From Candidatus Woesearchaeota archaeon (GTDB lineage: Archaea; Nanobdellota; Nanobdellia; Woesearchaeales; JASKKU01), in the NCBI GenBank assembly GCA_011045925.1, contig DSBS01000044.1, positions 1 to 39,601 on the forward strand: a stretch of DNA of 39,601 bases, read 5' to 3'. Within the stretch, counting starts at the first letter, position 1; each line of letters begins with the position of its first letter. The notes under the pieces were generated by a model, which worked only from the letters and a program-made list of their open reading frames with translations, ran no database searches and was not told the DNA's origin. The translations under genes were made by a program, and so were the position numbers. Positions 7,615 through 39,325 of this stretch are shown piece by piece.

Positions 7615-8226
7615 ATGAAACCTGTTAAGCAAAAAAAGCGCGCTGGCTTTGTAATGATAAAAGAATCAGTCCTTGAAAGAATGAAAAAAAGCGACAAGTC
7701 TAGCAAGGGCTCTGTTGATGATGAGGTTCTCCCGCTTTGCAACGCAATAAACAGGCTTAACGGGCTTGCAACAACAAGCTCATGCTCGGGGAGGATTTCA
7801 GTTGTTAAAGGAGAAGAAGGAGAGAAAACCAGGAATGCCTGGCTCTTTAAGAGCCACACCCCTGTAAATATGATTGACTTGCTAAGCATTAAGCTCCCTC
7901 AGGATTTAACCCTGTTCAAGATGGAGGGTGCAATAATACATGTTGCCTGTGAAAGCATTGAGAAAGCAAAAAAGCTTATTGAAGCCTCAAAGAGTGCCGG
8001 AATAAAAAGAGCAGCAATAATATCGCTCAGGGAGAATAAAATAATGGTGGAGATTATTTCCGGAGAGTCTCTCTGCTTTCCTTACTCAATAAACAAAAAG
8101 TTGCTTATAAGCCAAGAACACCTCGAAATCTGCCTGGAGGTTGCAAACAAAAAACTTAGGCGTGCCAGAGAAAAATTAAAAAAGCTGGAAAACGCCATAA
8201 TTCCAGTGGCTAAGAATCTTTCATAA
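7615..8226 (+). CDS. taw3: tRNA wybutosine-synthesizing protein 3 homolog (Taw3/TYW3 methyltransferase)
   Basis: VDDEVLPLCNAIN....TTSSCSGRI signature of the TYW3 family. About 200 aa. Confidence 0.85.
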   Translation: MKPVKQKKRAGFVMIKESVLERMKKSDKSSKGSVDDEVLPLCNAINRLNGLATTSSCSGRISVVKGEEGEKTRNAWLFKSHTPVNMIDLLSIKLPQDLTLFKMEGAIIHVACESIEKAKKLIEASKSAGIKRAAIISLRENKIMVEIISGESLCFPYSINKKLLISQEHLEICLEVANKKLRRAREKLKKLENAIIPVAKNLS

Positions 8227-10387: not shown

Positions 10388-11107
10388 TTGGAACAACCTA
10401 AAACGCTTAAAAATCTTTTGGGACAATTAAGAGAACATAAGAACGCACTGTTCCAGGAAAGGCTTATAAAGGTGGTAGCACATAATAGGATAAAACACAG
10501 ACGCGCAGAATTTGTGTTTTGTCTTTTTATTTTTCTTTTTTTTTTAATGCTTGTTTCAAGCCTTGCAATAATAGCAATAAACTGCTCTTTTGTCGAGGAT
10601 TCATATAGGCTTGCCAACCCTGGAATAAGCGAGAGGTTTGCTGAGGACATAACCTTGTTTCTAAGGGGAGAAAAAGAAAGAATCCATTACCTGGACCAGA
10701 AAGAAATAGAGCACCTATATGATGTAAGAGAGGTTATGAGAGTAATTATTCCTGTTGCATCGGTTATTCTTCTGCTTTCTTCTCTATCAATTGTCCTTCT
10801 TGTAGAGAAGGGTTTTTTAGGTAAGAAGGGCATAACCCAGGGGTTTTTAATTGCATGCCTATTGCTGGCAGTTTTTTTAGCTGCAGTGATGGTTTCCTTC
10901 ACCTGTTCTTTTGAGCTTTTCCATGTTATTCTTTTTCCTGAGGGAAATTATACATTTCCTTATTATTCTATGCTGATTATAAGTCTGCCCGAAAGCTTCT
11001 TTATAAATTTCTTTTTGGTGTCTGCAGGGCTTGCTGTGCTTGTAAATGCTTTCATTATGCTTCTGCTTCTGGAATTACATAAAAGAAAAAATAGCAAAAA
11101 CCCCTAG
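10388..11107 (+). CDS. Polytopic integral membrane protein, DUF1461/TIGR01906-like
   Basis: N-terminal TM, the loop motif EIEHLYDVREVM typical of DUF1461, then 3-4 C-terminal TMs. The track start is a TTG; the true start is uncertain (an in-frame GTG gives MVAHNRIKHRR). Confidence 0.5.
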   Translation: MEQPKTLKNLLGQLREHKNALFQERLIKVVAHNRIKHRRAEFVFCLFIFLFFLMLVSSLAIIAINCSFVEDSYRLANPGISERFAEDITLFLRGEKERIHYLDQKEIEHLYDVREVMRVIIPVASVILLLSSLSIVLLVEKGFLGKKGITQGFLIACLLLAVFLAAVMVSFTCSFELFHVILFPEGNYTFPYYSMLIISLPESFFINFFLVSAGLAVLVNAFIMLLLLELHKRKNSKNP

Positions 11108-12384
11108 CTTTGCTTAAGAAAGTCCTTTAGGTTTTTGAAAGAGGTATTTGGCCCTGGCTTCTCTGCGACATGCTGTTGCTTCTGTTGCGAAGAGGATAAA
11201 TAAGGCTTAATCATGGCTTTTCCATAAACCCCGTCATACCCTGGTGAAACCTGAATCTTTCCCTCCCTGTTCTGAATAATAACCTCTGCAAGCTCTTTTG
11301 CTACAACCCTGCACAAATCATCAAAAGGCGTGTTTAGGAGAACATTGAATTCATTTCCAAAAGCAGCTATTAAAGCATTATAAGTCTCCCAGGTTTTCTT
11401 TGAGCCAGGGGCAGTTCCGTTTAGTGCTGAGATAATTTCTGATAAAGGAATCAGGTGCCTGAAAGAGCCCGATTGCTTAGGCTCAGCCCTGTCTGCAAGA
11501 GTGTTTACCCTGCTTAGCACACCTATGGTCAGCGGCCTCCGGCACTTCGGGCAGAGTTTATTGAATTTTAGGGCTTCATTTGGCTCCAGGCTCACTTCGC
11601 AGTTCCTGTGTCCATCAAAATGGTACTTTCCATAAGCCGGGTCAACCTCTATTGTTCCCATGAAGCCTTCTTTTTCCCTTATTGAATTAATCAGGGATTT
11701 GTAGTCCATTTTTATGTCAAGAATGTTGGCTTCCCTTCCCAGCCGCCAGGGCCAGAAGCTATGAGAGTCTGAATTGGATACAAGGTTAAGCCTGTCTAAA
11801 GATGAAAGAAGCCTGTTCATTGCAGGATTTGAAGAAAGCCCTGTCTCTAGAGCATAAATTTTTTTGTGCTTATCACCGCAGCACTCTTCTAAGGAGTCAA
11901 AACCGCTTTTCGAGCCGAATATCCCAAACCACGGAGTCCATGCATGGGCCGGGATTACCTCATTTAAATTGTCTATCTCTTTTACCTTTTCTATAAATTC
12001 CGGAGCAGCAATCCCAAGGGTTGGCCTTCCGTCTGAAGCAAGAGAGCCATGCTTTGATAACGCCTCGTTTACCTGCAATGCTGTGTCTATATCTTTTGAG
12101 AGCAGGACAAAATGCACCTTCCTGGCTTTATTGTCCTGCGAATAAGCCAGGGAAACCTCTGACTGAAGCACAAAGCTAAAATCCTTTTCAGTCTTAAGAA
12201 AGCCTGTCCCATCCTCAGAAAGGCTCTGGCGAATTTCCCTAAGCCATTCAGGGTGTGTAAAATCCCCTGTTGCAAGAAGGCCCAGGCCTTTAACCCTCGC
12301 CCATTTCTCAAGATTTGGAATAGTAATAGCAGAAGAAGTAGCCCTTGAGAACCTTGAGTGTATGTGAAGATCTGCAAAGATCAT
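11104..12384 (-). CDS. Endonuclease Q-like PHP-domain nuclease (TIGR00375 family)
   Basis: ADLHIHSRFSRATS, GLLATGDFTHPEW, IPAHAWTPW, LETGLSS, SNSDSHS..P.RLGREAN, GKYHFDGHRNC, zinc finger CPKCRRPLTIGVLSRV, PGYDGVYGK. Confidence 0.75.
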   Translation of the reverse strand: MIFADLHIHSRFSRATSSAITIPNLEKWARVKGLGLLATGDFTHPEWLREIRQSLSEDGTGFLKTEKDFSFVLQSEVSLAYSQDNKARKVHFVLLSKDIDTALQVNEALSKHGSLASDGRPTLGIAAPEFIEKVKEIDNLNEVIPAHAWTPWFGIFGSKSGFDSLEECCGDKHKKIYALETGLSSNPAMNRLLSSLDRLNLVSNSDSHSFWPWRLGREANILDIKMDYKSLINSIREKEGFMGTIEVDPAYGKYHFDGHRNCEVSLEPNEALKFNKLCPKCRRPLTIGVLSRVNTLADRAEPKQSGSFRHLIPLSEIISALNGTAPGSKKTWETYNALIAAFGNEFNVLLNTPFDDLCRVVAKELAEVIIQNREGKIQVSPGYDGVYGKAMIKPYLSSSQQKQQHVAEKPGPNTSFKNLKDFLKQS

Positions 12385-13331
12385 ATATCATCATCTAGGT
12401 CTCTTTTCTTTCTTCTCTTGCCCTTTATTTTCTTAATCTCGTTCTCAAGGTTAAGCTCTTTTAGAAGCTCCTTATACCTGTTTCTGATTGTAACCTCAGT
12501 AACCCCGGCAACATCTGCAACCTCTCTTTGCGTCCTTTTCTCCCCATTAAGAAGGGCAGCTACATAAAGTGCGGCAGCAGCTATGCCGGTTGGGCCCCTG
12601 CCAGAAGTCAGCTCCTTTTTCTGTGCCAAGTCAAGCAAGTCAACAGACTTGGTTTGGGTTTCAGGCGAAAGCTTCAAAGAAGATGAAAACCTTGACAGGT
12701 AATCCATAGGGTTTGAGGGAAGAATCCTTATATTAAGCTCCCTGGTAATAAACCTGTAAGTCCTGCCAATCTCTTTTTTGTCAATCCCGCTTGCCTCGCT
12801 AAGCTCATCCAGCGTTCTCGGGATTTCATGCGCCCTGCAGGCTGCGTATAATGCGCCCGCAACTACAGACTCCATGCTCCTGCCTCTTACCAGGCCTCTT
12901 TGCACGGCTAATGTATAAATTCTGGCTGCTTCCTCCTGTACAGATTCCGGCAGGTTAAGGAAAGAGGTTATCCTCTTCAGCTCAGCAAGAGCCAGCTTAA
13001 GGTTTCTCTCTATAGCTGTGGTAATCCTCTTCTGCCATCTCCTGAGCCTGATAAACTTATTCTTGGACTTGCCCTCAAGCCTGCTTAAGTCTGCTGTAGA
13101 GCCAATTGCAGTGCCAAGCCCCTGGTCGTACTGTGAATAAGACATAGGGGCTCCGGTCCTCCTCTTTGACACATCATCAGAGTCCTCAAAATCCCTCCAG
13201 TCCTTGCCGTGGTCTATAAGCTTGTCCTCTATAACAAGCCCGCAGTCTTTGCAGATAATCTCTCCCTTGTCTTTATTGAAAAAAAGGTTTATGCTCCCGC
13301 ATTCAGGGCATCTTTTTATGAATTTGTTCAT
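12381..13331 (-). CDS. tfb: Transcription initiation factor IIB (TFB), 316 aa
   Basis: Zinc ribbon CPECGS..ICKDCG, B-reader region, two cyclin-fold repeats and a C-terminal HTH (VADVAGVTEVTIRNRYKEL). The start is trimmed to ATG 13331 because the track ORF extension runs through the TATA boxes. Confidence 0.93.
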   Translation of the reverse strand: MNKFIKRCPECGSINLFFNKDKGEIICKDCGLVIEDKLIDHGKDWRDFEDSDDVSKRRTGAPMSYSQYDQGLGTAIGSTADLSRLEGKSKNKFIRLRRWQKRITTAIERNLKLALAELKRITSFLNLPESVQEEAARIYTLAVQRGLVRGRSMESVVAGALYAACRAHEIPRTLDELSEASGIDKKEIGRTYRFITRELNIRILPSNPMDYLSRFSSSLKLSPETQTKSVDLLDLAQKKELTSGRGPTGIAAAALYVAALLNGEKRTQREVADVAGVTEVTIRNRYKELLKELNLENEIKKIKGKRRKKRDLDDDI

Positions 13332-13364
13332 TTTTATCACCAACGCGCTGGATAAATGAAAAGT

Positions 13365-13396
13365 TTTATAAATTGTAATTAAGCAAGATTTATAAA
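13365..13396. promoter_or_regulatory. Bidirectional promoter: two copies of the palindromic TATA box TTTATAAA (13365-13372 and 13389-13396)
   Basis: The first lies 33 nt upstream of the tfb ATG (minus strand). The second lies 24 nt upstream of the pilin-like gene ATG at 13421 (leaderless geometry). Confidence 0.55.
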
Positions 13397-13420
13397 CTTT
13401 TCCATACAAAGGGTATAAGA

Positions 13421-13969
13421 ATGAGAAAAAGCCAGTTTTCTATGGAAACCCTAATGGTCGCAGGATGGGTTTTTGTCGTGGTTATGGGCGTTTTTTCTGT
13501 TGCCGCTGCCTTCGGGGTTTTTGACCTTGAAAACTTTAAGCAGCCCTACTGCAAGATTTACAGTACATTTGATTGTGAGGACTTCGGCTTAGATCAGAAT
13601 AATAATCTGCAAATTGCCCTGAAAACAGACTCATTAGTCAATATATCTATCTTAAGGGTCAAGGTCGAAACAACAAGAGGCAGTGATTTAGATACCATCG
13701 GCCCCAATGAATATAGACCTCCAGATTGCAAAACAAAGGAGGGAGGGAGTTGTCAGACAAAAAAAGTAAGGAAGGGTTATCCTCGTCAAGAATACCCAAT
13801 CCTGGCCGCAGGAACTCCTATTCAGATAGAAGTACCAAACCCTTCAGGTAATAAAAGGTTTTCCGGGGATATTATTATTGAGTATGTGTTTGTTTCCGGC
13901 ACAGGAGATATTAATGCAAATGAAGTGGGTCGCATAAGAACCGCAAGAGGCCAGATACTGGTTTCGTGA
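13421..13969 (+). CDS. Type IV pilin-like protein with class III signal peptide
   Basis: MRKSQ/FSMETLMVAGWVFVVVMGVFSV N-terminus. Paralogous to the next gene through the shared C.IYS.F.C..F.LD.N..LQ motif. Confidence 0.65.
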   Translation: MRKSQFSMETLMVAGWVFVVVMGVFSVAAAFGVFDLENFKQPYCKIYSTFDCEDFGLDQNNNLQIALKTDSLVNISILRVKVETTRGSDLDTIGPNEYRPPDCKTKEGGSCQTKKVRKGYPRQEYPILAAGTPIQIEVPNPSGNKRFSGDIIIEYVFVSGTGDINANEVGRIRTARGQILVS

Positions 13970-14022
13970 AAACAAAAAAGATTAAATAGTTAAATGCAAA
14001 AAAGGATTAACAAAGAATCAGG

Positions 14023-14484
14023 ATGAAAAACCCAGCAAGAGCCCAGGCAGCCATGGAGTTTATGATTACCTATGGCTGGATCCTGTTTATCGGAGTTGCA
14101 ATCATTGCAGTAATTGCTACCTTTACCAACCTGGATGCACTTGCCTTTAGGGCGCAGAAATGCGAAATATACTCAAGCTTTAAATGCCTTTCATTTGCAT
14201 TAGATTCAAATGGAGAATTGCAGGTAATCGTAGGAAACAGCGCACAGGATGAGCTAACCATTACAAGCGCTAGCTTAATTTTAGATTCAGGGACTGTGAC
14301 AGCAGGTTCAGGTTCTATTCCTTCAACATCATTAAAAAGAGGCACTGGAGCAAATTCGCGCGGAACTATAACATTCAACAATGTAGGCAGGAAAGTTGAC
14401 GGCAAGATTGAGATAACTTACTATTTTGGGAATGCGGATGCTTCAACACATACAGCAGTTGGCTACATATATACAAGAAGATAA
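14023..14484 (+). CDS. Type IV pilin-like protein with class III signal peptide
   Basis: MKNPARAQ/AAMEFMITYGWILFIGVAIIAV is a textbook archaeal prepilin N-terminus (PF04021-like). Cys pair CEIYSSFKC. Confidence 0.75.
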   Translation: MKNPARAQAAMEFMITYGWILFIGVAIIAVIATFTNLDALAFRAQKCEIYSSFKCLSFALDSNGELQVIVGNSAQDELTITSASLILDSGTVTAGSGSIPSTSLKRGTGANSRGTITFNNVGRKVDGKIEITYYFGNADASTHTAVGYIYTRR

Positions 14485-15226: not shown

Positions 15227-16042
15227 TCAGACCAGCGGAGCCTGCCCGCCGTACAAAGCCTTAAACTTGGAATTTGAAAACTCCAGCGTGTACATGTTAA
15301 GGTCGCAGTTTGTTGCCCTCATCTTGATTACCTGCAAAGACCTTATTACCTTCCTGTACTGCTCAGTCCTCTCAAGGTAGATAATGCCATCAGAAAGGTA
15401 ATCCTCAACCCCGTACTCGCTGTACCTTGACTTGTCCAGTGGCATTTCTGAAATCAGGAATGAAGTAACCTTCTGCTCCCTGAAAGACTCAAAAATATGG
15501 AAAAGCTCAGCCCTGGGGTTTTCAAACCTGCTAAGAATGTATAGCGCTGACAACGAATCCAGGGTAAATATGTCAAGCTTTGACTGCGTCTTAAACTTCC
15601 GGATAAGGTTTTTAATAACATTAATCCAGTCACCCTGCTCCCCAATCTTTGTATCCTTTACCTCTCTTCTCAGCGCTCCAAGGTCAACCACAACAAGATT
15701 GCCTTTTTTTGAAGAGTTAACCTCGCGGATTTTTTCATCAACCCTTGACACATCAGAGACAATAACAGTATTTATCTTAGACATGTCAAAATCCAAGTTT
15801 ACTGCATGGTTGACAAGAGACCAGAAAGACTGCTCCAAAGAGATGTAAAGGCAGGTTTTGCCCTCTAGCAAAGTGTTGTAAAACATCGTGCTGAATGCAA
15901 ACGAAGACTTCATAGAGCCTGATGTGCCTGCAAGCAGGATAACGCTCCCTTCAGGAATGCCCCCCTGCATAACCTCATCAAAGCCCTCAACATAAGTCTT
16001 AATTCTTGAGATTTCGTTTTTATTTATATTCGGCTGAGTCAT
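15227..16042 (-). CDS. KaiC-like RecA-superfamily ATPase (single domain) with non-canonical Walker A
   Basis: RIKTYVEGFDEVMQGGIPEGSVILLAGTSGSMKSS, YISLEQS, IFTLDSLSAL, DGIIYLE, LQVIKMRATN. The ATG overlaps the upstream stop (ATGA). AGGAGG lies 9 nt upstream (16052-16057). Confidence 0.85.
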   Translation of the reverse strand: MTQPNINKNEISRIKTYVEGFDEVMQGGIPEGSVILLAGTSGSMKSSFAFSTMFYNTLLEGKTCLYISLEQSFWSLVNHAVNLDFDMSKINTVIVSDVSRVDEKIREVNSSKKGNLVVVDLGALRREVKDTKIGEQGDWINVIKNLIRKFKTQSKLDIFTLDSLSALYILSRFENPRAELFHIFESFREQKVTSFLISEMPLDKSRYSEYGVEDYLSDGIIYLERTEQYRKVIRSLQVIKMRATNCDLNMYTLEFSNSKFKALYGGQAPLV

Positions 16043-17319
16043 TTTTTAACGCCTCCTGCAACTCTCATATTATTAATCTTTCCGGTTTTTATGCCTATAA
16101 CAACATATTTCTGGTTTGACTTGTCTATAAACAAGTGAGTCCCGACCACCATCCCATCAAAGTCATACTTGTACAAAAGCCTTCCTTTATACTCACCAGG
16201 GTCCTCAGAAGAAATAAAGTCTGTATTTCCAAGCTGCGGGGTTATTGGTGAAACCCCAGGGACATAATTAACAACAAAAGAGCCCTCGGCATCAATAACA
16301 TAAACGGAGTGGTCAAAAGAGCCAACAATAATTTCCAGCTCCCCATCCGAGTCAAGGTCAGTAACAATCGGAGGGTTAACTATCCAGAAATCTGTCTCAA
16401 AGTTCCAAAGCTCTTTCCCATCCCTGTCCAGGGCATAAACCTTATTGTCACATGAGCCAAACACAATTTCCTGAAAGCCATCTGAGTTAATGTCTGCAAT
16501 TGTAGCCTCAGACACAATCTTCCCGTCTGTCTCAAAGCTCCATACCAAAGAGCCTGTTGAGGAGATGCAGTAAAGGCTATGGTCAAAAGAGCCAAACACA
16601 ATAAACTTCTCCTTGGTGTTTTTTATATGTGATATTATTGGCTTTGCCGTAATCTTATCCTTTGCCTTAAAGTCCCACTTAAACATGCCCAGGCTGTTAA
16701 CTGCAAAAAGCTTTCCCTCGTTTGTCCCAAAAAGAATAATGTCATCATCCACACCAGAAAGCAAAGCAGGGGCTGATTCAATCGGCGAGCCAGCATCATA
16801 TCTCCAGATCACAGAGCCAGTATAATCCAGGCAGTACAAAAAGCCGTCTGAGGCTCCGAAGACTATCTCGGGAAAATCATCCTCATTTACATCAGCAACC
16901 AGGATGTCAGAGCGGATTTTCCCGCTGGTTTTGAACTTCCACACAAGGTTCCCATCAGCATCAAGCACAAAAAGAATCCCATTTTCCGAGCCAAAAATAA
17001 TCTCTTTCTTCCCGTCTTTATTAATATCGTACAAAACCGGGGTTGTATAAATGCTAAAAGAAGACTCAGAATCCAGAAACAATGACTGAATCCCTGAAAG
17101 CTTTTCTTTCAGGTCGTAGAGCCATTTAACCTTAGACTCATCATTAATCACATAAAGCCTTCCATCTTTAGTTCCAAAAACAATCACTGCTTCATTTGAG
17201 CTTTCCTCAAGCTTGCCAGCAACCGGGCCCACAGAGATGTCAGAGCTTGAATTAAATTCCCAGACCTTAATCAGCTTTAGGCTTTCCCTTCTCCTCATAA
17301 GGTTATCGAGCAGTGACAT
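16039..17319 (-). CDS. PQQ/FG-GAP-like beta-propeller repeat protein, no signal peptide
   Basis: 7-8 repeats of (V/I)FG(S/T/A)xDGxLYxxDxxGxxxWxF, interleaved with D(I/V/L)NxDGxxEI(I/V)FGS. The N-terminus MSLLDNLMRRRESLKLIKV is hydrophilic. Confidence 0.8.
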   Translation of the reverse strand: MSLLDNLMRRRESLKLIKVWEFNSSSDISVGPVAGKLEESSNEAVIVFGTKDGRLYVINDESKVKWLYDLKEKLSGIQSLFLDSESSFSIYTTPVLYDINKDGKKEIIFGSENGILFVLDADGNLVWKFKTSGKIRSDILVADVNEDDFPEIVFGASDGFLYCLDYTGSVIWRYDAGSPIESAPALLSGVDDDIILFGTNEGKLFAVNSLGMFKWDFKAKDKITAKPIISHIKNTKEKFIVFGSFDHSLYCISSTGSLVWSFETDGKIVSEATIADINSDGFQEIVFGSCDNKVYALDRDGKELWNFETDFWIVNPPIVTDLDSDGELEIIVGSFDHSVYVIDAEGSFVVNYVPGVSPITPQLGNTDFISSEDPGEYKGRLLYKYDFDGMVVGTHLFIDKSNQKYVVIGIKTGKINNMRVAGGVKK

Positions 17320-17340: not shown

Positions 17341-17352
17341 TTTATTTAAAGT
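17341..17352 (-). promoter_or_regulatory. TATA box (ACTTTAAATAAA on the minus strand) 21 nt upstream of the propeller gene ATG
   Basis: Located in the 54-nt spacer after the LamG gene. Implies a separate leaderless propeller/KaiC-like transcript. Confidence 0.45.
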
Positions 17353-17373
17353 TTTTTCACTACTAAGCTAAAA

Positions 17374-21868: not shown

Positions 21869-23155
21869 ATGCAAGTCAGTATAATCACATTTGGGTGTGC
21901 TTCAAACCAGGCTGACTCTGACTTCATGAGAAGCCTGCTGTTAGAAGAAGGCATTGCCATTAGCGAAGACCCTTCTGAAGCAGGGATTATTATTGTTAAC
22001 TCATGCACTGTAAAGCACCACGCAGAAAGCAAGTTCTGGAAAACTGTTAGAGAGCTAAAGCTTAAAGGAAAAAGAGTGATAGCTGCAGGATGTGTTCCCC
22101 AGGCCGATAAACAAGCAGAAATAAAGCTTAAGAAATCAGGCATTTCGATAATAGGAGTAAAAGACACAGACAGCATCTGCGAAGCTGTAAAAGCAGAGTC
22201 AGAAGGAAAGCATATTGTAAAGAACAACTCTAAAAAAAAGAATCCTTACAAAAAACCCATTACACTTTCAGGAATAACAGGAAAGATCCAGATAAATGAA
22301 GGATGCATTGGCTCCTGCTCTTACTGCAAGACTAAATCTGCAAGAGGAGACTTGATTTCCTACCCAATAAAAAACCTGGTAACCCAAGCTCAATGCTTTA
22401 TTCGCCAAGGTGCAAAAGAACTTTGGCTAACATCGCAGGATACAGGGGCTTACGGCAGAGACATTGGAACAAGCCTGGCTAACCTGGTTAAAGAGATTAT
22501 GATTATTCAGGGAGACTTTTTTGTGCGAATTGGCATGAGCAACCCAAACACAATAAAGCCTTTAGTTAAAGACATTATTAGATTAATGAAAAAAAATGAA
22601 AGAATATACCGGTTTCTTCATATTCCTATTCAGTCAGCAAATAACCAGGTGCTAAAGGGTATGAATAGAAAATATGATGCTAAAACACTTGAGGAAATCT
22701 TCAGGGAAATAAGCAGCTCTGGCTTAGGCATTACAGTAAGCACGGATGTAATCTGCGGTTTTCCTAATGAAACCGAAAAGCAGTTTCTTGATACTCTTGA
22801 TTTTATTAGGAAGATTAAGCCAGATGTTCTTAACATTTCAAGATACTGGGCCAGGCCCGGAACAAAGGCAGCATCAATGAAGCAGCCATTCAATAAGGTT
22901 GGAATAAATAGGACGAGAAAAATAAAGGAAGAGTTCGACAGAATATCCAAAGAAAAGAATAAGGCCTGGGCAGGATGGAAAGGAAAGGCATTGGTTACAG
23001 AGAAAGGGAAGCATGGCACCTATATCTGCAGAAACAAGCATTACAAGCAGGTAATACTAAAAAGCGATGAAAGATTAGGAGAATTCATCGAGGTTGAGAT
23101 TGAAAGGCCAAGAAAGTTTGACTTCTTCGGGAAAGCATTAAACAGAAATGTTTGA
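21869..23155 (+). CDS. MiaB-like tRNA methylthiotransferase, archaeal/eukaryal CDKAL1 (ms2t6A) type
   Basis: UPF0004 N-domain (ITFGCASNQADSD, NSCTV). Radical SAM CIGSCSYC. C-terminal TRAM domain. Confidence 0.9.
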   Translation: MQVSIITFGCASNQADSDFMRSLLLEEGIAISEDPSEAGIIIVNSCTVKHHAESKFWKTVRELKLKGKRVIAAGCVPQADKQAEIKLKKSGISIIGVKDTDSICEAVKAESEGKHIVKNNSKKKNPYKKPITLSGITGKIQINEGCIGSCSYCKTKSARGDLISYPIKNLVTQAQCFIRQGAKELWLTSQDTGAYGRDIGTSLANLVKEIMIIQGDFFVRIGMSNPNTIKPLVKDIIRLMKKNERIYRFLHIPIQSANNQVLKGMNRKYDAKTLEEIFREISSSGLGITVSTDVICGFPNETEKQFLDTLDFIRKIKPDVLNISRYWARPGTKAASMKQPFNKVGINRTRKIKEEFDRISKEKNKAWAGWKGKALVTEKGKHGTYICRNKHYKQVILKSDERLGEFIEVEIERPRKFDFFGKALNRNV

Positions 23156-24112
23156 GAAATCCTTAAGGAAACGCTTTCCATGGTCTTCAGGCTTCATAAG
23201 AAGCACAACCCTGGACTCTTTTTTTTCATCTGCTGGCTTCCATTCGCAGAAGGCGCTGATCTTACCGGCAAATTCCTTAATATCATTATGCAAAGGCATA
23301 TTTGTTTTTTCCAGCCTGTATATTGAAGAGCCAACATGCATATAAGACTTAACCTCAACAAACAAAGGGTTGGCGCTCTTTATCAGCTGTGCATACCTTT
23401 CCGGAGCAAAATCATTAATTCCTTTAATGAGGGTTATTCTTAAGCAGGTTCTTGTTTTTGAATTCCTTTTTTCTGACATCACGCCAAGGCTTTCATTAAA
23501 AAGATTCCATGCGCTCTTTATTTTAGGCTTTTCTATCTCAAGAAAGGTCTTTTCATCAGGTGCAGAAACAGATTGATATAACTGAGTCGGAAAAATCTTT
23601 TTCAGCATTCCTGGGTTAAGCCCGTTTGTAACCACAAAGGTTGTTATTCCCCTCTTATGCAGAGCCTCAATTAATTCAGGAAGAAAAGGATAAAGTGTAG
23701 GCTCCCCAGTAAGGGAGATTGCAAAATGCTTTGGGTTTTGGGCTTGTTTAAGCTTTTCGAGACTGACTTTTTCGTTTCCGCCAAAGCCTGAAAGAAGCTT
23801 TCTTTGCTGTGAGAATGATTTCTCTATAATTGCTTCTGGCTTGTCTGCTAAGTCTCTTGGGATTTCGTCAAAGCCCTTGGTATCAGCAAAGCTCCTCCAG
23901 CAGAAGATACAGCTGTTCTGGCAGTAGTTAACTGAAGGGCTCATCTGGCAGCAGAGGTGCGCCTGAATCCCATAAAAGACCTGCTTGTAGCAAACATCCC
24001 TATTGAGCAAAGAGCGTTTTGTCCACGTACAGATTTTTACTGCAGTATGTCCCCCGGAAAAGCCGTACTGCTGCTTCTTCAGGGTTTTTCTAACCTGCGC
24101 TTTGTCTTGCAT
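23138..24112 (-). CDS. taw1: 4-demethylwyosine synthase Taw1/TYW1 (radical SAM)
   Basis: GHTAVKICTW..CYKQVFYGIQAHLCCQMSPS..C.NSCIFCWR. The start is trimmed to ATG 24112 (the track start is a TTG). A TTTATATT box lies ~21 nt upstream. Confidence 0.9.
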   Translation of the reverse strand: MQDKAQVRKTLKKQQYGFSGGHTAVKICTWTKRSLLNRDVCYKQVFYGIQAHLCCQMSPSVNYCQNSCIFCWRSFADTKGFDEIPRDLADKPEAIIEKSFSQQRKLLSGFGGNEKVSLEKLKQAQNPKHFAISLTGEPTLYPFLPELIEALHKRGITTFVVTNGLNPGMLKKIFPTQLYQSVSAPDEKTFLEIEKPKIKSAWNLFNESLGVMSEKRNSKTRTCLRITLIKGINDFAPERYAQLIKSANPLFVEVKSYMHVGSSIYRLEKTNMPLHNDIKEFAGKISAFCEWKPADEKKESRVVLLMKPEDHGKRFLKDFSNISV

Positions 24113-24207
24113 TTTAAAAGGGATGGAAAAGGAATATAAAACCCTTTTGAAAAATATAAAAGAGAAAGATTTAAAAAGGATATCTAACAAGGAAGCAAGC
24201 CATAGAA

Positions 24208-27072
24208 ATGAAATTAAAAACCAATCCTTTTTCGATAAGAGTCATTACTTTATTCTGCCTCTTTTTTCTTTTTTTATATGCAAAGGCTGCCTATGGTGAA
24301 ACTCCTTTGTGTGTTCCTTCTGAATCTTGCTGCATTGACAGGGATTGCAAAATTCAGGTTGACTGCGAGAATAATAAGATTTGCTCAGGCTCATTATTTG
24401 GGCTCGCAAACTGTATAGATTTCAAGTGCGACAGCCCAAGCAATATAGAAATAATTGACGGCAAATGCGTTCCTTCTAAAAGCTGCAGGCTTAACAGCTT
24501 TATTGAAATCGACTGTGAAAACAACAAAATCTGCAACAGGCTTATTGGGATCTGCATTGAATTCAAGTGCTCAACACACTGCGATTACGTAAGCTGTGCA
24601 AGATATGAAATCTGCATCAAAGGAAATTGTGTGCCAAAGCCTACAGACCCAGTAATGCTTGGCTTCATAACATTAGACTCAATTTCCATAAATGAACACA
24701 GCGCAAAATACAGCATAGAGTTAACCGAGCCGAACGAGATGCCGCGAAATGCAAAAAGCTCACACTTCTGTGGGATTTGGGATAATACCTTTAACGCAGG
24801 CGGCTGCCAGAAGTGGCCCTACAATGATTGTAATTTATTTGATGCAAAGTTCAGAGATCATGTTTTTTTCAGGCAAGTAGACAAAGATAACAAAGATTTT
24901 GAGGTATTATGTAACAAAATGGCAATACGGCCTTGGGTAGCCTTTTGTGACGGGGTAAGCAATGCTTTATTAAAATTCAGTTTATGCGATACAGGCTCAG
25001 GCATTCCTTGCGAGTCAAAAATAAACCTAAACCCTTCTGACAAGTTTACATATCTAGGATTAACCAAGGATTATGACACCGTTAATATTAACCTTGCCGA
25101 CTCAAAAAGCTCAGTTGAAGGCAAGTTCAGCTATGAGTGTGTAACAATTGGAGACATGATTGTTCCTGGCTCATCAAACAGGATGCTTTGCAAAGATGAG
25201 CAGGGGATTGCATTGTATGCAGTAAACCATCTGCATGACTGCGGGCAGCAAGGAGGGGTGTGTGTAAATGGGGTTTGCAAAGAGCATATCTGCATTCCTG
25301 ATGACGCTCTTCACAAAAACGAGGAATGCGACCCCGAAGCAGGCTTATTCTGGGTAACAGACAGCTCAGGAAACAGGAAGCAGGTTTCAAGAGCAGACAT
25401 ATCGTGCATGGATTATGGGCTAGTGCCAAAGGACGGAAATCCCGAAACAAAACCTGAGTGTGACGACTACTGCATTATTGACTTAAGCAGCTGTGTGTCC
25501 GAGGCACATTTCAGAAGCCAGATGTGCGGCAACCACCAGATTGACATAATGCCTTTATCAAAAACACAAGAAGCATGCGACATGCATGAAAGCGGAACAT
25601 TCTATGAGCATCCTTTTGGAGACACCCGAGAAAAAACTATATTGCTTCCTGACAGCCAAAAGCTTTACTGCGGCCAGCAGGCTGGCTTTATTGGCGACGC
25701 CGAACTCCTTAGGTGCTTGGATGAATGCTCAGAGGTCAGCTTTGAGTGGTGCATGGAAGACTTATCTTTAAAGAACCCTGAAGCAAAAGGGGAAAGCGAC
25801 TGTGCTGACGGATATAATGATAATTACTGGCATGTAATCTCAAACATTGATGAATCAATTGCAAATGACGGATACTTTGATATAAGCAGGGTAAGGTACA
25901 ATGAAGAACTTTGCCTAAGCCCAACGCAATGCACTGACTGCCATGACATAAGCTGCCATATGAGAGATGGAAACGGCGGAATCTGCAATTTCATGGAAGA
26001 GCTATACTGCAATGATGGGTTTGACAACAACGGAAACGGCCTTGTGGACCTAGAGGACCCAAGCTGCTCTCCTGACCCAAGGTACAATCCTGACCAGTCA
26101 AAAATTGGCTTTTGCAATGTAAACTATAACTGCTACCTTGACAGAGACAGCCTAAGCGGGAAAACAAAAGAGCTTTGCTACAAAGACGGAGAAATTGTGT
26201 GGGATATGGAAGGGGATTTTATATGCGCAGAAGACAACTTCTGGACTTCCCCGCTAAAGGCAATGGCAGGGCTGTTTTACTCTGTTTCAGACAAGAATGA
26301 GTTTTCAATTTACTGCAATGACTACGGAGACAGGGAAGAAGGCTATGTGGTTGCATACAACAGCAAGACTCCAAGCGGCATGAATACTGGAGACTTCATG
26401 AGGCTTGCTGGCTCCAGCTTTAGAAAAATGTGCGCCTTCTCTTCCGGAGACTATTGGGGAGTCTCTGCAAAGATAAGAGATGTAAACCAGGAAAACAGCC
26501 AGAATATAGCAAGAAACATCCAGAGTGCAATGCCTCTCTTCTCATCTAACAGGGCTGCATGCGATTCTACTGCTGAGAATAAAGAAAGTTTACTGGTGCA
26601 AAGCTGCAACGATTTTGGAGTCTTTATGAATTCAAGGTATGGAATAATTTTCAGGACAAACAGAAACATAGAAAACGCTCCGGTTTTGACCGGGCTTGAT
26701 TATATAAAATCTGCTATCGAAGAGCTTGATCCAATAGGGTCTGAAACGCCGCATCTTTCACAAGGGGCAAAAACCGAAGCCTTTGTATGGAAAAGAAATG
26801 GAGACAAAGAAATAAAAGAAATAATTGGCGCAATAGAACAAATTAACGGGACAGTTTATGCAATGATCATTTACAAAAACATCGACAACTTCGATGAGAT
26901 CTGCAAGGATTCTCTAAGCATGATAAGAATAAGCAGCAGGGTTTACGGGGAATGTTTTGTTGTTGGAAGCAGGGATTACCTTGTTAAGTGGTCTTTTCAA
27001 TATGATGCCGCAGAGCTCCAGGCTTCAAAAAGCAAGTTCAACGAGCTTGTAAGAAATGTTAAAATAAACTAA
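24208..27072 (+). CDS. Large Cys-rich secreted protein, paralog A (954 aa), unknown family
   Basis: Signal peptide ..LFFLFLYAKAAYG/E. Duplicated DCENNKIC...C(I)EFKC modules. CKEHICIPDD..NEECDP, CGNHQID, CNDGFDNNGNGLVDLEDPSC. C-terminus ELQASKSKFNELVRNVKIN. Confidence 0.8.
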   Translation: MKLKTNPFSIRVITLFCLFFLFLYAKAAYGETPLCVPSESCCIDRDCKIQVDCENNKICSGSLFGLANCIDFKCDSPSNIEIIDGKCVPSKSCRLNSFIEIDCENNKICNRLIGICIEFKCSTHCDYVSCARYEICIKGNCVPKPTDPVMLGFITLDSISINEHSAKYSIELTEPNEMPRNAKSSHFCGIWDNTFNAGGCQKWPYNDCNLFDAKFRDHVFFRQVDKDNKDFEVLCNKMAIRPWVAFCDGVSNALLKFSLCDTGSGIPCESKINLNPSDKFTYLGLTKDYDTVNINLADSKSSVEGKFSYECVTIGDMIVPGSSNRMLCKDEQGIALYAVNHLHDCGQQGGVCVNGVCKEHICIPDDALHKNEECDPEAGLFWVTDSSGNRKQVSRADISCMDYGLVPKDGNPETKPECDDYCIIDLSSCVSEAHFRSQMCGNHQIDIMPLSKTQEACDMHESGTFYEHPFGDTREKTILLPDSQKLYCGQQAGFIGDAELLRCLDECSEVSFEWCMEDLSLKNPEAKGESDCADGYNDNYWHVISNIDESIANDGYFDISRVRYNEELCLSPTQCTDCHDISCHMRDGNGGICNFMEELYCNDGFDNNGNGLVDLEDPSCSPDPRYNPDQSKIGFCNVNYNCYLDRDSLSGKTKELCYKDGEIVWDMEGDFICAEDNFWTSPLKAMAGLFYSVSDKNEFSIYCNDYGDREEGYVVAYNSKTPSGMNTGDFMRLAGSSFRKMCAFSSGDYWGVSAKIRDVNQENSQNIARNIQSAMPLFSSNRAACDSTAENKESLLVQSCNDFGVFMNSRYGIIFRTNRNIENAPVLTGLDYIKSAIEELDPIGSETPHLSQGAKTEAFVWKRNGDKEIKEIIGAIEQINGTVYAMIIYKNIDNFDEICKDSLSMIRISSRVYGECFVVGSRDYLVKWSFQYDAAELQASKSKFNELVRNVKIN
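25931..26378 (+). repeat. Copy A of the high-identity collinear tract shared by the tandem paralogs (partner at offset +2923)
   Basis: Hand alignment: 7 mismatches in 157 nt (25931-26087) and 9 in 150 nt (26229-26378). Includes a 68-nt perfect match (26299-26366 equals 29222-29289). Confidence 0.85.
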
Positions 27073-32671: not shown

Positions 32672-33742
32672 TTAACCTATCAGGGTTGAAAAAATTCCTG
32701 TCAGGAAAAGGTTAAGCACTGTAAAAACAAAGCCGGACAATACAATAAAAGCCGGCATATATTTCAGGCCCGCCTTAATGTTCCCTTCCCTGATTATTGC
32801 AATAATCATAGATGAAAATACCGCAGTCAGGAATATTACTACATAAGACATTAAAGTAAATGTTGCCGGCTCTACAGGAACAGCCTCTATTGCACCAATA
32901 GAAAAAAGCCCTGTCTGCTGGACATCCTGGGGAATGCTTGCAGAGTCCATCTTTGATACAAAGCCTTCAAGAACCAGAAGAAACTGGTTAGAAAGCGCGA
33001 ACAGGAAAGGCGACACAAAGCACGCCACGATTACAATAAACATTACATAATTAAGGTTGGTTGCTGAAATATCCTTTTTTAGCTCTGAAGTGTTCTCAAG
33101 CTCTGAGGAAATTTTATCTACAATAGGGGATATTCTTGCTCCGCCAAGCAGGGACTCGCTTAATATCGAAAAAGTCCTGTTCAGGTCATCAGAGTCATAA
33201 AGCTGTCCCAGATAAATCAATGCATCGCCGGTGTTCTCGCCAACTGCGATTCTCTTTGCAACAAGCTGCAGCTCTTTTGAAAGCTCTCCGTAATCCGGCC
33301 TGATTGAATTCCAGAAAGCCTGCTCAAAGGTTGTTCCTCCCTTAAGGTTTTCAGAGACTGACTTTAAAAACCCCGGAAGATTCTCCTCCATGCTTCTTAT
33401 TCTCTTGTAGATAATGAAATCAAAATAAACCATAATAAAGGAAATAACAATAAAAAAGTAAACAGACAAATAAACCAAAGAGACAAACAGGAAAAACAAA
33501 GGGGTAATTACCAGGTTAAAAACGGTTCTCGAAACCTCAAAGGCTTCTGAAATATCCAAAAAGAAATATAAGCCTAGAACTGCAAGAATCATTGTAACAA
33601 AACCAGCAATAAATAGAGCCCCAAACAGAGCAAAAGGAGGATTCTCAAACCCGGCTTTTCTGGAATAATCTGAGAGGCCTTTCCTAAGCCTCTCAGGAGT
33701 AAGCGTCTTTCCTATAATCTCCAGAAACTCGAATTTTGCCAT
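32672..33742 (-). CDS. Type IV pilus/T2SS platform protein, T2SSF-domain (TadC/FlaJ C-half-like)
   Basis: Polytopic membrane protein with one T2SSF-like cytoplasmic domain (LKGGTTFEQAFWNS....LQLVAKRIAVGENTGDALIYL....LLGGARISPIVDKIS). Confidence 0.8.
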   Translation of the reverse strand: MAKFEFLEIIGKTLTPERLRKGLSDYSRKAGFENPPFALFGALFIAGFVTMILAVLGLYFFLDISEAFEVSRTVFNLVITPLFFLFVSLVYLSVYFFIVISFIMVYFDFIIYKRIRSMEENLPGFLKSVSENLKGGTTFEQAFWNSIRPDYGELSKELQLVAKRIAVGENTGDALIYLGQLYDSDDLNRTFSILSESLLGGARISPIVDKISSELENTSELKKDISATNLNYVMFIVIVACFVSPFLFALSNQFLLVLEGFVSKMDSASIPQDVQQTGLFSIGAIEAVPVEPATFTLMSYVVIFLTAVFSSMIIAIIREGNIKAGLKYMPAFIVLSGFVFTVLNLFLTGIFSTLIG

Positions 33743-33752
33743 TTTTACTCAC

Positions 33753-34538
33753 TTATAGGTTAATCACCGGCCTAACCGACTTGATTATGCTTATGAAAAA
33801 GTACTGCACAACTGCCAAAAGCAGAACAACAACCCAAATGAATACAGTAGGAAGAATTATGCCTACGAAAGTCAGGAAAACAAGCGAGATTGCAAACCCG
33901 AGTGAAGGAAGCACTATCGCAAGCACCAGATAAAGCAAAACGATTGTATTAAGCTTTTTCCCGTATTCTTTTATCTCCAGTGCCAGCTCGTTCCTTATTG
34001 AAGCAAGCGTCTCTTCTAAAGTGTAAGTTACATCGGCTCCTGTTTTGAGTGATACAATTAAGGGATAAAGAACTTTCTTAAACTTTGAGGAAGGAGTCTT
34101 TTCCCTTGCCTGCTCTAACGCTTCCTCAATAGGGGTGCCTGTGTTTATTGCAGTAACAATGCCTTTAAAAAAATCACCAGCAACAGTATTGTCTGAAGCA
34201 GCATCAGTAAGCGCCTGAAGAATTGGGATTCCAGAGTTTATCTTCAAAAGAAGGTACCTTCCCGCAAAAAGAACCTCTTTATCCAGCTCTCTCTGAAGGT
34301 GATAAATCTTTAAGTCCAGGGTTCTGTTGTAAAAAGAAACCATGCCAACAAAAGAGGCAAGCAGAATCAGGGGATAGACCCAAAGAAGTCCGAAGCGGGT
34401 TACAAAAGCAAAGAAAAGGGTTAAAGCCAAAGAAGACATAACTGCTGAAATCATGGTTCTTCTCTTGAACTCCCTGGGGCTTATATCCAGCTTTGCAAGC
34501 TCAAGCTTCCTTTTCAGCTCAATTTCCTTAAGGTTCAT
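33753..34538 (-). CDS. Type IV pilus/T2SS platform protein, T2SSF-domain (TadB/FlaJ N-half-like)
   Basis: LLLKINSGIPILQALTDAA....FFKGIVTAINTGTPIEEALEQA....LIVSLKTGADVTYTLEE, flanked by TMs. ATGA overlap with the ATPase gene. Confidence 0.8.
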   Translation of the reverse strand: MNLKEIELKRKLELAKLDISPREFKRRTMISAVMSSLALTLFFAFVTRFGLLWVYPLILLASFVGMVSFYNRTLDLKIYHLQRELDKEVLFAGRYLLLKINSGIPILQALTDAASDNTVAGDFFKGIVTAINTGTPIEEALEQAREKTPSSKFKKVLYPLIVSLKTGADVTYTLEETLASIRNELALEIKEYGKKLNTIVLLYLVLAIVLPSLGFAISLVFLTFVGIILPTVFIWVVVLLLAVVQYFFISIIKSVRPVINL

Positions 34539-39178: not shown

Positions 39179-39253
39179 GAAAATAAGGAATCTGAGGAAA
39201 TGTTTTAAAGGTTTCGTAAAAGATTTAAAGAATTGCCAAATCTGCTTGCTTGC

Positions 39254-39325
39254 GCCTCTGTGGCTTAGTCGTATAGCGCATCCTTGGTAAGGATGAGGTC
39301 CCGGGTTCAACTCCCGGCAGAGGCT
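39254..39325 (+). tRNA. tRNA-Thr (anticodon GGU), no encoded CCA
   Basis: Hand-folded cloverleaf. Acceptor stem GCCTCTG/CAGAGGC. Anticodon stem CATCC/GGATG with loop TTGGTAA (GGT at 39286-39288). T arm CCGGG-TTCAACT-CCCGG. 5-nt variable loop. Discriminator T. A TATA-like AGATTTAAAGAA lies ~20 nt upstream. Confidence 0.9.

Follow-up and report, generated by a model that had tools for sequence, protein, structure and literature searches.

A conserved gene pair encoding a signal-less beta-propeller and a KaiC-like ATPase with a deviant P-loop in Woesearchaeota-type DPANN archaea

Archaeal KaiC-like ATPases have been proposed as signal-transduction hubs (Makarova, Galperin and Koonin 2017, as cited in PMC5847659 and PMC6393860). 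Those with a single domain (PF06745; PH0186, PH0284) share with the ATPase described here one RecA-fold domain of the KaiC-CI type, the conserved catalytic Glu, Asp, Lys and Arg residues, and a gene located beside a lineage-specific partner; they differ in their P-loop, which is GxxGxGK[ST] there and GxxGxMK[ST] here, and in the nature of the partner, which here is a PQQ/FG-GAP propeller without a signal peptide. ArlH (FlaH) is likewise a single-domain KaiC-like protein, one that works by binding another component of a machine and not as a metabolic enzyme, a mode of action that the protein studied here may share; the present pair, in contrast, has no ArlI/ArlJ-type neighbour and carries the deviant P-loop. 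The CI domain of cyanobacterial KaiC is the best match in both sequence and fold, with E70 at the position of the first catalytic Glu and a KMR element aligned to KFR, whereas KaiC as a whole has two domains instead of one and CII phosphorylation sites that are without counterpart here, the equivalent stretch being CI-like. The RadA paralogues of the Sso2452 type (aRadC) are also archaeal KaiC-like single-domain ATPases, and 2w0m is a significant match, but the P-loop and the partner of our protein set it apart from them. As for the propeller, its eight blades of repeats of about 40 residues are those of BamB, YxaL and 3HXJ (an archaeal PQQ-like propeller and the template of the "Cake" designer proteins), from which it differs by the lack of a lipoprotein or secretion signal and by the presence of FG-GAP-type DxNxDGxxE loops. 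Our literature search, which did not take in the Makarova 2017 survey, found no publication that connects beta-propellers with KaiC-like ATPases, or that mentions a Woesearchaeota KaiC.

The two genes follow one another on the minus strand of a Woesearchaeota-type DPANN archaeon, the propeller gene first and the KaiC-like ATPase gene second (Table 1), and both open reading frames exist at exactly the coordinates given in the earlier note on this DNA. Positions are those of the window, i.e. the whole stretch of 39,601 nucleotides that was analysed. Antisense ORFs are present on the plus strand within both genes (15432-15848 and 16613-16825) and are purely mechanical ORFs.

Table 1. Features of the propeller-KaiC locus, in window coordinates.
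Feature	Position	Strand	Description
Propeller gene	16039-17319	minus	426 aa, 8-bladed PQQ/FG-GAP-type beta-propeller, without signal peptide or TM segment
KaiC-like ATPase gene	15227-16042	minus	271 aa, single RecA-fold domain, KaiC-CI type
Putative archaeal promoter	17343..17357	minus	A-rich BRE-like stretch and TTTAAATA box, read from sequence
Shine-Dalgarno AGGAGG	16052..16057	minus	within propeller 3' end, 9 nt ahead of KaiC ATG
ATGA stop/start overlap	16039..16042	minus	propeller TGA 16041-16039 and KaiC ATG 16042-16040
Deviant Walker A GTSGSMKS, residues 39-46	15905..15928	minus	Met44 where the canonical Gly precedes Lys
Walker B region FTLDSLSA, residues 158-165	15548..15571	minus	contains Asp162; aligns with KaiC CI Walker B
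Insertion of ~24 aa, residues 87-113	15704..15784	minus	specific to DPANN clade (alignment A3)
C-terminal tail ALYGGQAPLV, residues 262-271	15230..15259	minus	conserved
Blade 6 loop DINSDGFQE (D276-E284)	16468..16494	minus	FG-GAP-type DxNxDGxxE motif, resembles metal-binding loop
Blade 7 loop DLDSDGELE (D321-E329)	16333..16359	minus	second such motif, DxDxDGxxE
Conserved low-confidence loop, residues 352-373, YVPGVSPITPQLGNTDFISSED	16201..16266	minus	candidate partner-binding segment

The TTTAAATA box, at 17350-17343, is preceded by the A-rich stretch and separated from the propeller ATG by 23 nt; the TATA-like box itself had been recognised previously, but at a distance of 21 nt. Such a spacing implies, on the reading of the DNA, that the propeller mRNA is leaderless or has a very short leader. 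The same box recurs in relatives, at -31 in locus L001 and at -39/-40 in L002, L003 and L073, and a TATA-like box is located between -40 and -18 in 44 of 62 orthologous loci. At the junction of the two genes, the ATGA overlap and the AGGAGG within the propeller 3' end are both present as had been described. The identical ATGA is found in L001, and in most orthologous loci the KaiC start is preceded by sites of the GAGGTG/AGGTGA type. Although the ATGA fits a coupling of translation between the two genes in this genome, the strictly stoichiometric co-expression that had been proposed on its account is no trait of the family, because the ORFs, called from the first possible start, overlap by any length in 15 of 71 orthologous loci, the spacer has a median of 8 nt (60 nt or less in 56/71 loci), and one subclade has a spacer of 70-110 nt. 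This longer spacer contains a TATA-like box, and the KaiC gene of the subclade appears to have its own promoter.

The pairing of the two genes is conserved in related genomes, as a neighbourhood census of the kind suggested in the earlier note revealed. Of 80 species-level genomes anchored on the propeller, whose propellers are 36-60% identical to the query, 77 have a KaiC gene next in line downstream, in the same orientation, and the reverse census found a propeller upstream in 33 of 35 metagenome loci anchored on KaiC; overall, the pairing is seen in well over a hundred related genomes. The arrangement far exceeds chance. Natural fusions of the two proteins are absent from the listed matches (the best 120 homologues per protein and the best 150 representatives), and a mirror-tree comparison of propeller and KaiC, with the MFS-like protein as the control for phylogeny, gave a partial r of 0.19, below the controls, and thus no signal over and above common phylogeny. 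The MFS-like protein is a membrane protein whose gene is present in 59/80 loci, directly upstream and divergent in 45/80 with a median spacer of 123 nt, and it may be linked to the pair; this gene aside, no other neighbour passes 17/80 loci. No MFS-like gene was found in the window or in the ~8 kb beyond it upstream on the 94-kb contig.

The propeller belongs to the PQQ-like/FG-GAP repeat beta-propellers, both by its Pfam matches (Beta-prop_ACSF4 5.5e-57, PQQ_2 1.8e-16, FG-GAP_3 4.6e-12; PF13570, PF13360 and PF13517 score 194, 61 and 47 bits, all exceeding the gathering scores) and by the closed eight-bladed fold of its AF2 model (pLDDT 86.3, pTM 0.84). The top structural match of this model is the eight-bladed designer protein Cake8, with a target-normalised TM-score of 0.94, and BamB follows at 0.74-0.81. 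Homologues at E<=1e-5 number 698, the best 120 of which span 384-447 aa, nearly all with at least 92% query coverage. Two more specific identities were considered and rejected: that of BamB (66.8 bits vs a cut-off of 285 and 41 vs 423; no signal peptide) and that of a PQQ-dependent dehydrogenase (24-25 bits on quinoprotein models vs cut-offs of 480-650).

The absence of a signal peptide or TM segment, which the earlier note had observed in this one propeller, holds throughout the family: a 19-residue window with a Kyte-Doolittle hydropathy above 1.6 occurs in none of 81 propeller orthologues, and the conserved N-termini are without a hydrophobic stretch in the alignment. Since no orthologue has a hydrophobic segment, the propeller is probably a cytoplasmic protein. 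An upstream alternative start that would reveal a signal peptide is ruled out, because the ORF already begins at the first start codon past an in-frame stop. A signal-less propeller of this type is indeed unusual, but it is not without precedent, the C-terminus of the AfsK kinase, ACSF4 and BBS2/7/9 being cytoplasmic PQQ/FG-GAP-type propellers. Conservation is marked in three of its loops. D276, D280 and E284 of the blade 6 loop are invariant in alignment A1, and this loop may bind metal; in the blade 7 loop D321 and E329 are invariant and G326 nearly so. The loop at residues 352-373, with AF2 pLDDT <50 throughout, has invariant Y352, P354, G355, Q362 and G364 and could bind a partner.

The second protein of the pair is a member of the KaiC-like superfamily, matching PF06745 over residues 14-257 (1.2e-37, 129.9 bits, cut-off 26.6). 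Its AF2 model (pLDDT 85.4) is closest in fold to PH0186 and the KaiC CI ring, and its top PDB sequence matches are KaiC, PH0186 and SSO2452. The best NCBIfam match, KaiC_arch_4, reaches 99 bits and is under its cut-off of 248, and the protein falls outside the archaeal KaiC families TIGR03877/03878/03880/03881 (99, 90, 83 and 20 bits vs cut-offs of 232-307). A circadian KaiC was rejected (one 271-aa domain; 97 bits, cut-off 408, and 57 bits, cut-off 546, on two circadian models), as was ArlH/FlaH (34.4 bits vs 215 and 37 vs 194). No KaiA or KaiB genes are among the annotated ORFs of the window, and the PADLOC defence-system models gave no match for either the propeller or the KaiC-like protein. 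The ~24-aa insertion and the GGxxPL tail are found in DPANN members and are missing from stand-alone relatives in Thermoplasmatota; in the tail, G265 and G266 are invariant and A262, P269 and L270 nearly so, with AF2 pLDDT <50 at residues 267-271. Both elements occur in the KaiC-like proteins of L133, L134 and L137, which lack an adjoining propeller, and are therefore not strictly tied to it.

The most distinctive feature of the KaiC-like protein is its P-loop, which departs from the canonical Walker A in that M44 is aligned to the Gly of the KaiC GTGKT. This Met is invariant in 72/72 genome orthologues and 80/80 metagenome loci. The deviation is common to a larger family, some of whose members, in Thermoplasmatota, stand alone while others are fused to zinc-ribbon/TPR regions: among the best 150 representatives the position is occupied by M in 112 motifs, L in 19, Y in 7 and F in 1, with Gly in double-domain KaiC only. 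About 18 of these 150 are 385-711 aa long, and the long relatives whose sequences were inspected carry an N-terminal zinc-ribbon and a long region, TPR-like in part by sequence reading and not by domain search, ahead of the KaiC-like domain. The catalytic residues are conserved. K45, E70, D162, K240 and R242 are invariant in the KaiC-like alignments and Ser/Thr46 is invariant or nearly so; around Walker B, D162, S163, S165 and A166 show no variation. E70, D162, K240 and R242 align with the catalytic Glu, the Walker B Asp and the trans-acting Lys/Arg of KaiC CI, the last two falling on the KFRGT element, which in KaiC rings completes the ATP site of the neighbouring subunit.

We tentatively favour, as quite possible though short of probable, a model in which the pair is a conserved operon of Woesearchaeota-type DPANN archaea encoding a cytoplasmic ring of KaiC-like ATPase and a propeller that serves as its target-binding adaptor. 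Transcription would probably start from the BRE/TATA promoter about 25 nt ahead of the leaderless propeller ORF, and the internal Shine-Dalgarno site would drive translation of the KaiC-like ORF, whose start overlaps the propeller stop in this genome. Both products most likely act together in the cytoplasm, where the KaiC-CI-type RecA-fold protein may assemble into a ring with inter-subunit ATP sites and, by turning over ATP, act as a nucleotide-dependent switch, and where the signal-less eight-bladed propeller, in contact with it, could provide the adaptor surface for a target. This target could be membrane-located in most genomes, since the gene of the MFS-like protein shares the short spacer ahead of the propeller and is read in the opposite direction. 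The pair would then be a lineage-specific form of the archaeal pattern that couples KaiC-like ATPases to differing partner domains, and the zinc-ribbon/TPR fusions of the same ATPase fit the logic of an ATPase plus a protein-binding adaptor.

In weighing the adaptor model, we counted for it the pairing, the tight spacing with its Shine-Dalgarno site, the cytoplasmic propeller, the invariant ATPase residues, the clade-specific insertion and tail, the conserved propeller loop and the MFS-like gene. Counted against it were the Gly-to-Met change in the P-loop, which could impair nucleotide binding, the lack of fusions among the listed matches, the low mirror-tree correlation, the three propeller-less loci, the missing MFS-like gene in this genome and the apparent KaiC promoter of one subclade. 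A broader proposal, conceivable but doubtful, is that propeller and Met-P-loop ATPase together make up a core machine of the cytoplasm, so far unrecognised, in Woesearchaeota-type DPANN archaea, which in most genomes would work with the divergently transcribed MFS-like protein, and that a bulky P-loop residue (Met, Leu or Tyr) defines a large family with altered nucleotide handling, whose adaptor is supplied in trans (the propeller), fused (zinc-ribbon/TPR) or absent.

Other readings of the pair have to be weighed against the adaptor model. The KaiC-like protein could act like an aRadC-type RadA paralogue, such as Sso2452, in a module for DNA repair or recombination with the propeller as scaffold, which we consider rather unlikely. 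SSO2452 (2w0m) is among its PDB sequence matches at 4.2e-15, "RAD55 family ATPase" is the family name in several sources, the PHROGs matches are to DnaB-like and UvsX-like families, although this similarity is only generic, and HerA and Mre11 genes are found within 10 kb in 22/81 loci, upstream in some clades and downstream in others, with PolB near in 6 loci. However, the genes that separate KaiC from HerA/Mre11 are variable and, by sequence reading, mutually unrelated (a secreted protein; MazG-, HD- and NUDIX-like proteins), so that the proximity looks like regional synteny and not an operon, and HerA/Mre11 are not near the pair in most loci nor in the window. Moreover, RadA/RadB models score 36, 21 and 22.6 bits against the 97-99 bits of KaiC models, and no DNA-binding element was identified. 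It is also unlikely that the protein is a pseudo-ATPase in which the Gly-to-Met change abolishes hydrolysis or binding, leaving a purely structural partner of the propeller. The Gly ahead of the Walker Lys is near-universal in P-loop NTPases and is replaced here by Met, Leu, Tyr or Phe across a large family, and inactivated archaeal KaiC-like domains ("iKaiC") have been described (PMC5847659). Yet the retention of Lys45, Ser/Thr46, Glu70, Asp162, Lys240 and Arg242, invariant or nearly so over deep divergence, would not be expected of a dead site. MCM helicases, in addition, have a working P-loop with a residue other than Gly at the same position.

The genes around the pair have suggested two further roles. 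In one, which we judge distinctly unlikely, the KaiC-like protein would be the accessory ATPase of a type IV pilus-like system, acting as ArlH does on ArlI, with the propeller replacing the ArlCDE/ArlX scaffold. ArlH is itself a single-domain KaiC-like protein (PMC8978795, PMC10117864); in about 20 of 81 loci a pilin-like gene is no more than three genes away from the pair, the arrangement being one of two (clusters 5 and 9), and in the window there are two pilin-like ORFs (13421-14484) as well as a T2SSE/T2SSF locus (32672-35992). A stricter pilin motif search gave 12 loci and an odds ratio of 4.3 near vs far, but this enrichment is weak, since DPANN genomes contain many pilin-like genes and the loci, being linked by phylogeny, are not independent samples. 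Furthermore, ArlH and FlaH models reach only 23-37 bits vs cut-offs of 194-215, no arl genes adjoin the pair in the window or in the related loci examined, and no T2SSE or T2SSF gene adjoins it, such clusters being confined, among the propeller-anchored loci, to the window (at ~17 kb from the pair) and its close relatives. The other role is that put forward in the earlier note, in which the module serves to regulate, export or assemble the LamG giant next to it, or similar surface structures. The pair directly follows a co-oriented giant gene in the clade of the window (LamG, 1319 aa) and in L029 (2432 aa), and in L134 the KaiC-like gene comes directly after a 1848-aa giant with a HerA/FtsK-like P-loop in its cytoplasmic tail. 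The link to LamG nonetheless fails beyond the immediate relatives, the gene being upstream in 5/81 loci, namely the window and four close relatives with 59-94% propeller identity. Because genes for giant surface proteins are frequent in these genomes (the window alone has four ORFs of at least 817 aa), their adjacency is likely due to chance, and KaiC-like ATPases are not known as translocases; we consider this role highly improbable.

The genomes of DPANN archaea are tiny, and the conserved genes of unknown function that they carry are believed, for the most part, to relate to a lifestyle dependent on a host. The genes of the signal-less propeller and the KaiC-like ATPase have stayed adjacent in almost all Woesearchaeota-type genomes sampled, even as the genes around them were reshuffled, and the pair is therefore a good candidate for a cellular system of importance. 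On our best reading, the propeller is a new type of partner for archaeal KaiC-like modules, and the pair thus offers a concrete partner with which to probe KaiC-like ATPases as general regulatory hubs of archaea. Finally, whether a P-loop with Met in place of Gly binds and hydrolyses ATP is a question that concerns at least several hundred protein clusters.

The propeller and KaiC-like genes are both encoded on the minus strand, at the positions that the earlier note gave them, and the overlap of the propeller stop with the KaiC start and the AGGAGG ahead of KaiC, also claimed there, are both present in the sequence. The called propeller gene is the longest possible ORF. Since it begins at the first start codon past an in-frame stop, an alternative upstream start that would add a signal peptide is excluded. 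Six nt separate the KaiC stop from a convergent RIO kinase gene. The window, which corresponds to approximately positions 54,250-93,850 of a 94-kb metagenome contig, has archaeal gene content (TFB, RIO kinase, wyosine synthesis genes and a class II aminoacyl-tRNA synthetase). Pilin-like ORFs occur too, as do a type IV pilus-like ATPase and the two platform genes that accompany it.

Coordinates of the gene pair and of other features (positions in the window unless a related locus, L005 or L134, is named)
Feature	Position	Strand	Remarks
Propeller ORF	16039-17319	-	426 aa
KaiC-like ORF	15227-16042	-	271 aa
Stop/start overlap	propeller TGA 16041-16039, KaiC ATG 16042-16040	-	sequence read
AGGAGG	16057-16052	-	9 nt 5' of KaiC ATG
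TTTAAATA box	17350-17343	-	preceded by A-rich stretch; 23 nt 5' of propeller ATG
Walker A GTSGSMKS	15905-15928	-	Met44 at Gly position preceding Lys
Type IV pilin-like ORF pair	13421-13969 and 14023-14484	+	N-termini e.g. RAQAAMEFMITYGW
MFS-like gene, example	L005 8436-9863	-	plus 58 other loci
1848-aa protein	L134 422-5968	+
Met-P-loop KaiC-like gene	L134 5977-6804	+	directly follows 1848-aa protein gene; cf. L133
TYW3	7615-8226	+
426-aa ORF beside TFB	11104-12384	-	4-nt overlap with TFB stop
TFB	12381-13409	-
MiaB-like radical SAM enzyme	21869-23155	+	tRNA modification
Wyosine-formation radical SAM enzyme	23138-24190	-	overlaps preceding gene convergently
954-aa ORF	24208-27072	+	no Pfam match
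966-aa ORF	27110-30010	+	adjacent to 954-aa ORF; no Pfam match
Type IV pilus-like locus	32672-38438	-	817-aa ORF, no confident domain; 485-aa T2SSE-type ATPase; two T2SSF-type platform genes
Longest FKBP-type ORF	38516-39310	-
tRNA-Thr (GGT)	39254-39325	+	overlaps 5' end of FKBP-type ORF

Elsewhere in the window, TYW3 and the two radical SAM enzymes make up a set of tRNA-modification genes. The 954- and 966-aa ORFs fall in one sequence cluster and are therefore apparently tandem paralogues. The ORF overlapping TFB has the precomputed annotation PF27218 (MJ0043_C), and this pair is kept in close relatives. Because tRNA-Thr and the 5' end of the longest FKBP-type ORF overlap, the true FKBP start probably lies further downstream.

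The pairing is clearly conserved, a point on which the earlier note had left room for refutation. When one genome per species was scanned, a propeller relative was present in 198 genomes, and in 77 of the 80 loci fetched the KaiC-like gene came next on the same strand. The exceptions are a contig end (L057), a locus whose available 1.2 kb contain no KaiC (L032) and a third in which KaiC lies 5 kb off on the opposite strand (L080). Among metagenome loci anchored on KaiC and having enough upstream DNA, a propeller lay upstream in 33/35 at KaiC identities of at least 45%, as opposed to just 1/20 more distant ones. For both proteins, named homologues derive from metagenome-assembled genomes of Woesearchaeota or Nanoarchaeota. 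Many records with the Woesearchaeota-type operon (L002, L004, L006 and many more) bear the title "uncultured Methanosarcinales archaeon", and a few others "Planctomycetia" or "Alphaproteobacteria"; such titles look like mislabelled bins.

The propeller family is tight: the search gave 698 matches, and the 120 listed span 384-447 aa, nearly all with query coverage of at least 92% and, closest relatives aside, with identities of ~37-47%. The protein matches Beta-prop_ACSF4 (5.5e-57), PQQ_2 and FG-GAP_3 in Pfam, and its AF2 model is confident (pLDDT 86.3, pTM 0.84). In superposition its closest match is the 8-bladed designer protein Cake8 (TM-score 0.94 on target), with BamB next, and eight four-stranded units in the secondary structure indicate that it is itself 8-bladed. 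Identification as BamB or as a quinoprotein was rejected, the model scores lying far below the cut-offs. No hydrophobic segment occurs in any of 81 orthologues, and no hydrophobic stretch in any of the aligned N-termini; a cytoplasmic location is therefore most likely for the propeller. FG-GAP-type DxNxDGxxE loops occur in four blades, and D276, D280, E284, D321 and E329 are invariant in the alignment. Loops of this type bind calcium in integrin-type propellers, and by analogy those found here may bind metal. Conservation is strongest in the C-terminal half, and a loop with five invariant residues (352-373, low AF2 confidence) is a candidate binding site.

Counted from the first possible KaiC start, which may in some cases be over-extended, the spacer between the genes has a median of 8 nt, with 56/71 at 60 nt or less and 15/71 ORF pairs overlapping. 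Nearly all orthologous KaiC starts have a GAGGTG-type ribosome-binding site ahead of them, and a TATA-like box lies 18-40 nt 5' of the propeller ATG in 44/62 loci. One subclade (L020, L022, L026, L027, L031, L033, L034, L039, L052 and L069) has spacers of 70-110 nt containing a conserved TTTAAA-type box, AAAG(C/T)TTTAAA(T)A, so that KaiC may also have a promoter of its own there.

The ATPase matches PF06745 (1.2e-37) and is nearest, by fold and sequence, to KaiC CI and Pyrococcus KaiC-like proteins; model scores rejected ArlH, RadA or RadB and all four named archaeal KaiC families. Its stretch equivalent to the KaiC CII phosphosites is CI-like, which makes a kinase-type clock function unlikely. 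E70, D162 and K240-M-R242 are conserved; their aligned counterparts in KaiC CI are, respectively, the first catalytic Glu, the Walker B Asp and the KFR element. In KaiC rings the KFR element extends into the ATP site of the adjacent subunit, and its conservation argues for ring assembly here as well.

Without exception, 72 genome orthologues and 80 metagenome loci have the Walker A Met. Searching 1.8 billion representatives with a profile yielded 265 clusters at E<=1e-30, and among the Walker A motifs of the best 150 Met occupies this position in 112, Leu in 19, Tyr in 7 and Phe in 1, with Gly only in double-domain true KaiC. Bulky residues were seen across loci L081-L160 and representative proteins P0269-P0418. 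Judged by these counts, the deviant P-loop is the mark of a large KaiC-like family with at least three forms. Thermoplasmatota members, including marine Thalassarchaeaceae, stand alone and lack the ~24-aa insertion and C-terminal GGxxPL tail that are features of the DPANN clade. Approximately 18 of the best 150 representatives have a long N-terminal extension preceding the KaiC-like domain, and in those sequences that were read by eye it shows a zinc-ribbon and TPR-like repeats. In the DPANN clade, the ATPase is accompanied by the propeller in trans.

The surroundings of the pair bear on several rival explanations. One ties the pair to giant surface proteins. The LamG giant that the earlier note placed beside the pair indeed ends at 17374, 54 nt upstream of the propeller, but this upstream position is limited to the window and four close relatives (L001, L002, L003 and L073) and is thus not conserved. 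At L134, a locus without a propeller, the 1848-aa protein combines repeats outside the cell and a single TM segment with a HerA/FtsK-like P-loop region on the cytoplasmic side, and the KaiC-like protein is 47% identical to that of the window. Another rival has the pair acting at a pilus motor in the manner of ArlH; pilin-like genes lie within three genes of the pair in ~20/81 loci. The window's two pilin-like ORFs, for which Pfam gave no match, adjoin the RIO kinase gene, an arrangement kept in close relatives. The pair might instead have an aRadC-type role in DNA repair, and HerA and Mre11 occur within 10 kb on either side, with variable intervening genes, in 22/81 loci, and PolB near the pair in 6. 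Because the loci are phylogenetically related, the pilin-like, HerA/Mre11 and PolB counts are hints only. Apart from KaiC, the sole conserved neighbour is a gene for a ~475-aa polytopic membrane protein with a weak MFS score (7.4e-10) and a soluble N-terminal stretch of ~45 aa, present in 59/80 loci (median spacer to the propeller 123 nt) and directly upstream and divergent in 45/80; every other neighbour family reaches at most 17/80. It was not found within the window or in the next ~8 kb upstream.

A further rival takes the KaiC-like protein to be a non-catalytic scaffold. The invariance of its catalytic residues argues that the deviant ATP site is in use and not dead, and in MCM helicases a residue other than Gly is tolerated at the position equivalent to Met44. 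The most economical reading, which we put forward tentatively, is a cytoplasmic complex in which a KaiC-CI-type ring would switch in a nucleotide-dependent manner, with the propeller as the adaptor that would bind the target. In most genomes the leading candidate for this target is the MFS-like membrane protein. Such a logic of ATPase plus adaptor is in keeping with related ATPases being fused to a different repeat scaffold, and with the clade-specific insertion and tail, although L133, L134 and L137 have the insertion and tail with no propeller adjacent. The ring and adaptor reading also matches the proposal, as cited in PMC5847659 and PMC6393860, that archaeal KaiC-like ATPases team up with variable partners.

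In the literature searched, a scope outside which the 2017 survey of archaeal KaiC-like ATPases and its tables fall, neither a KaiC-like ATPase paired with a beta-propeller nor KaiC in Woesearchaeota was found described. The pair joins a known class of ATPase, here with an uncharacterised P-loop, to an apparently new partner, and it is noteworthy because it has been kept so widely in a lineage that is poorly understood.
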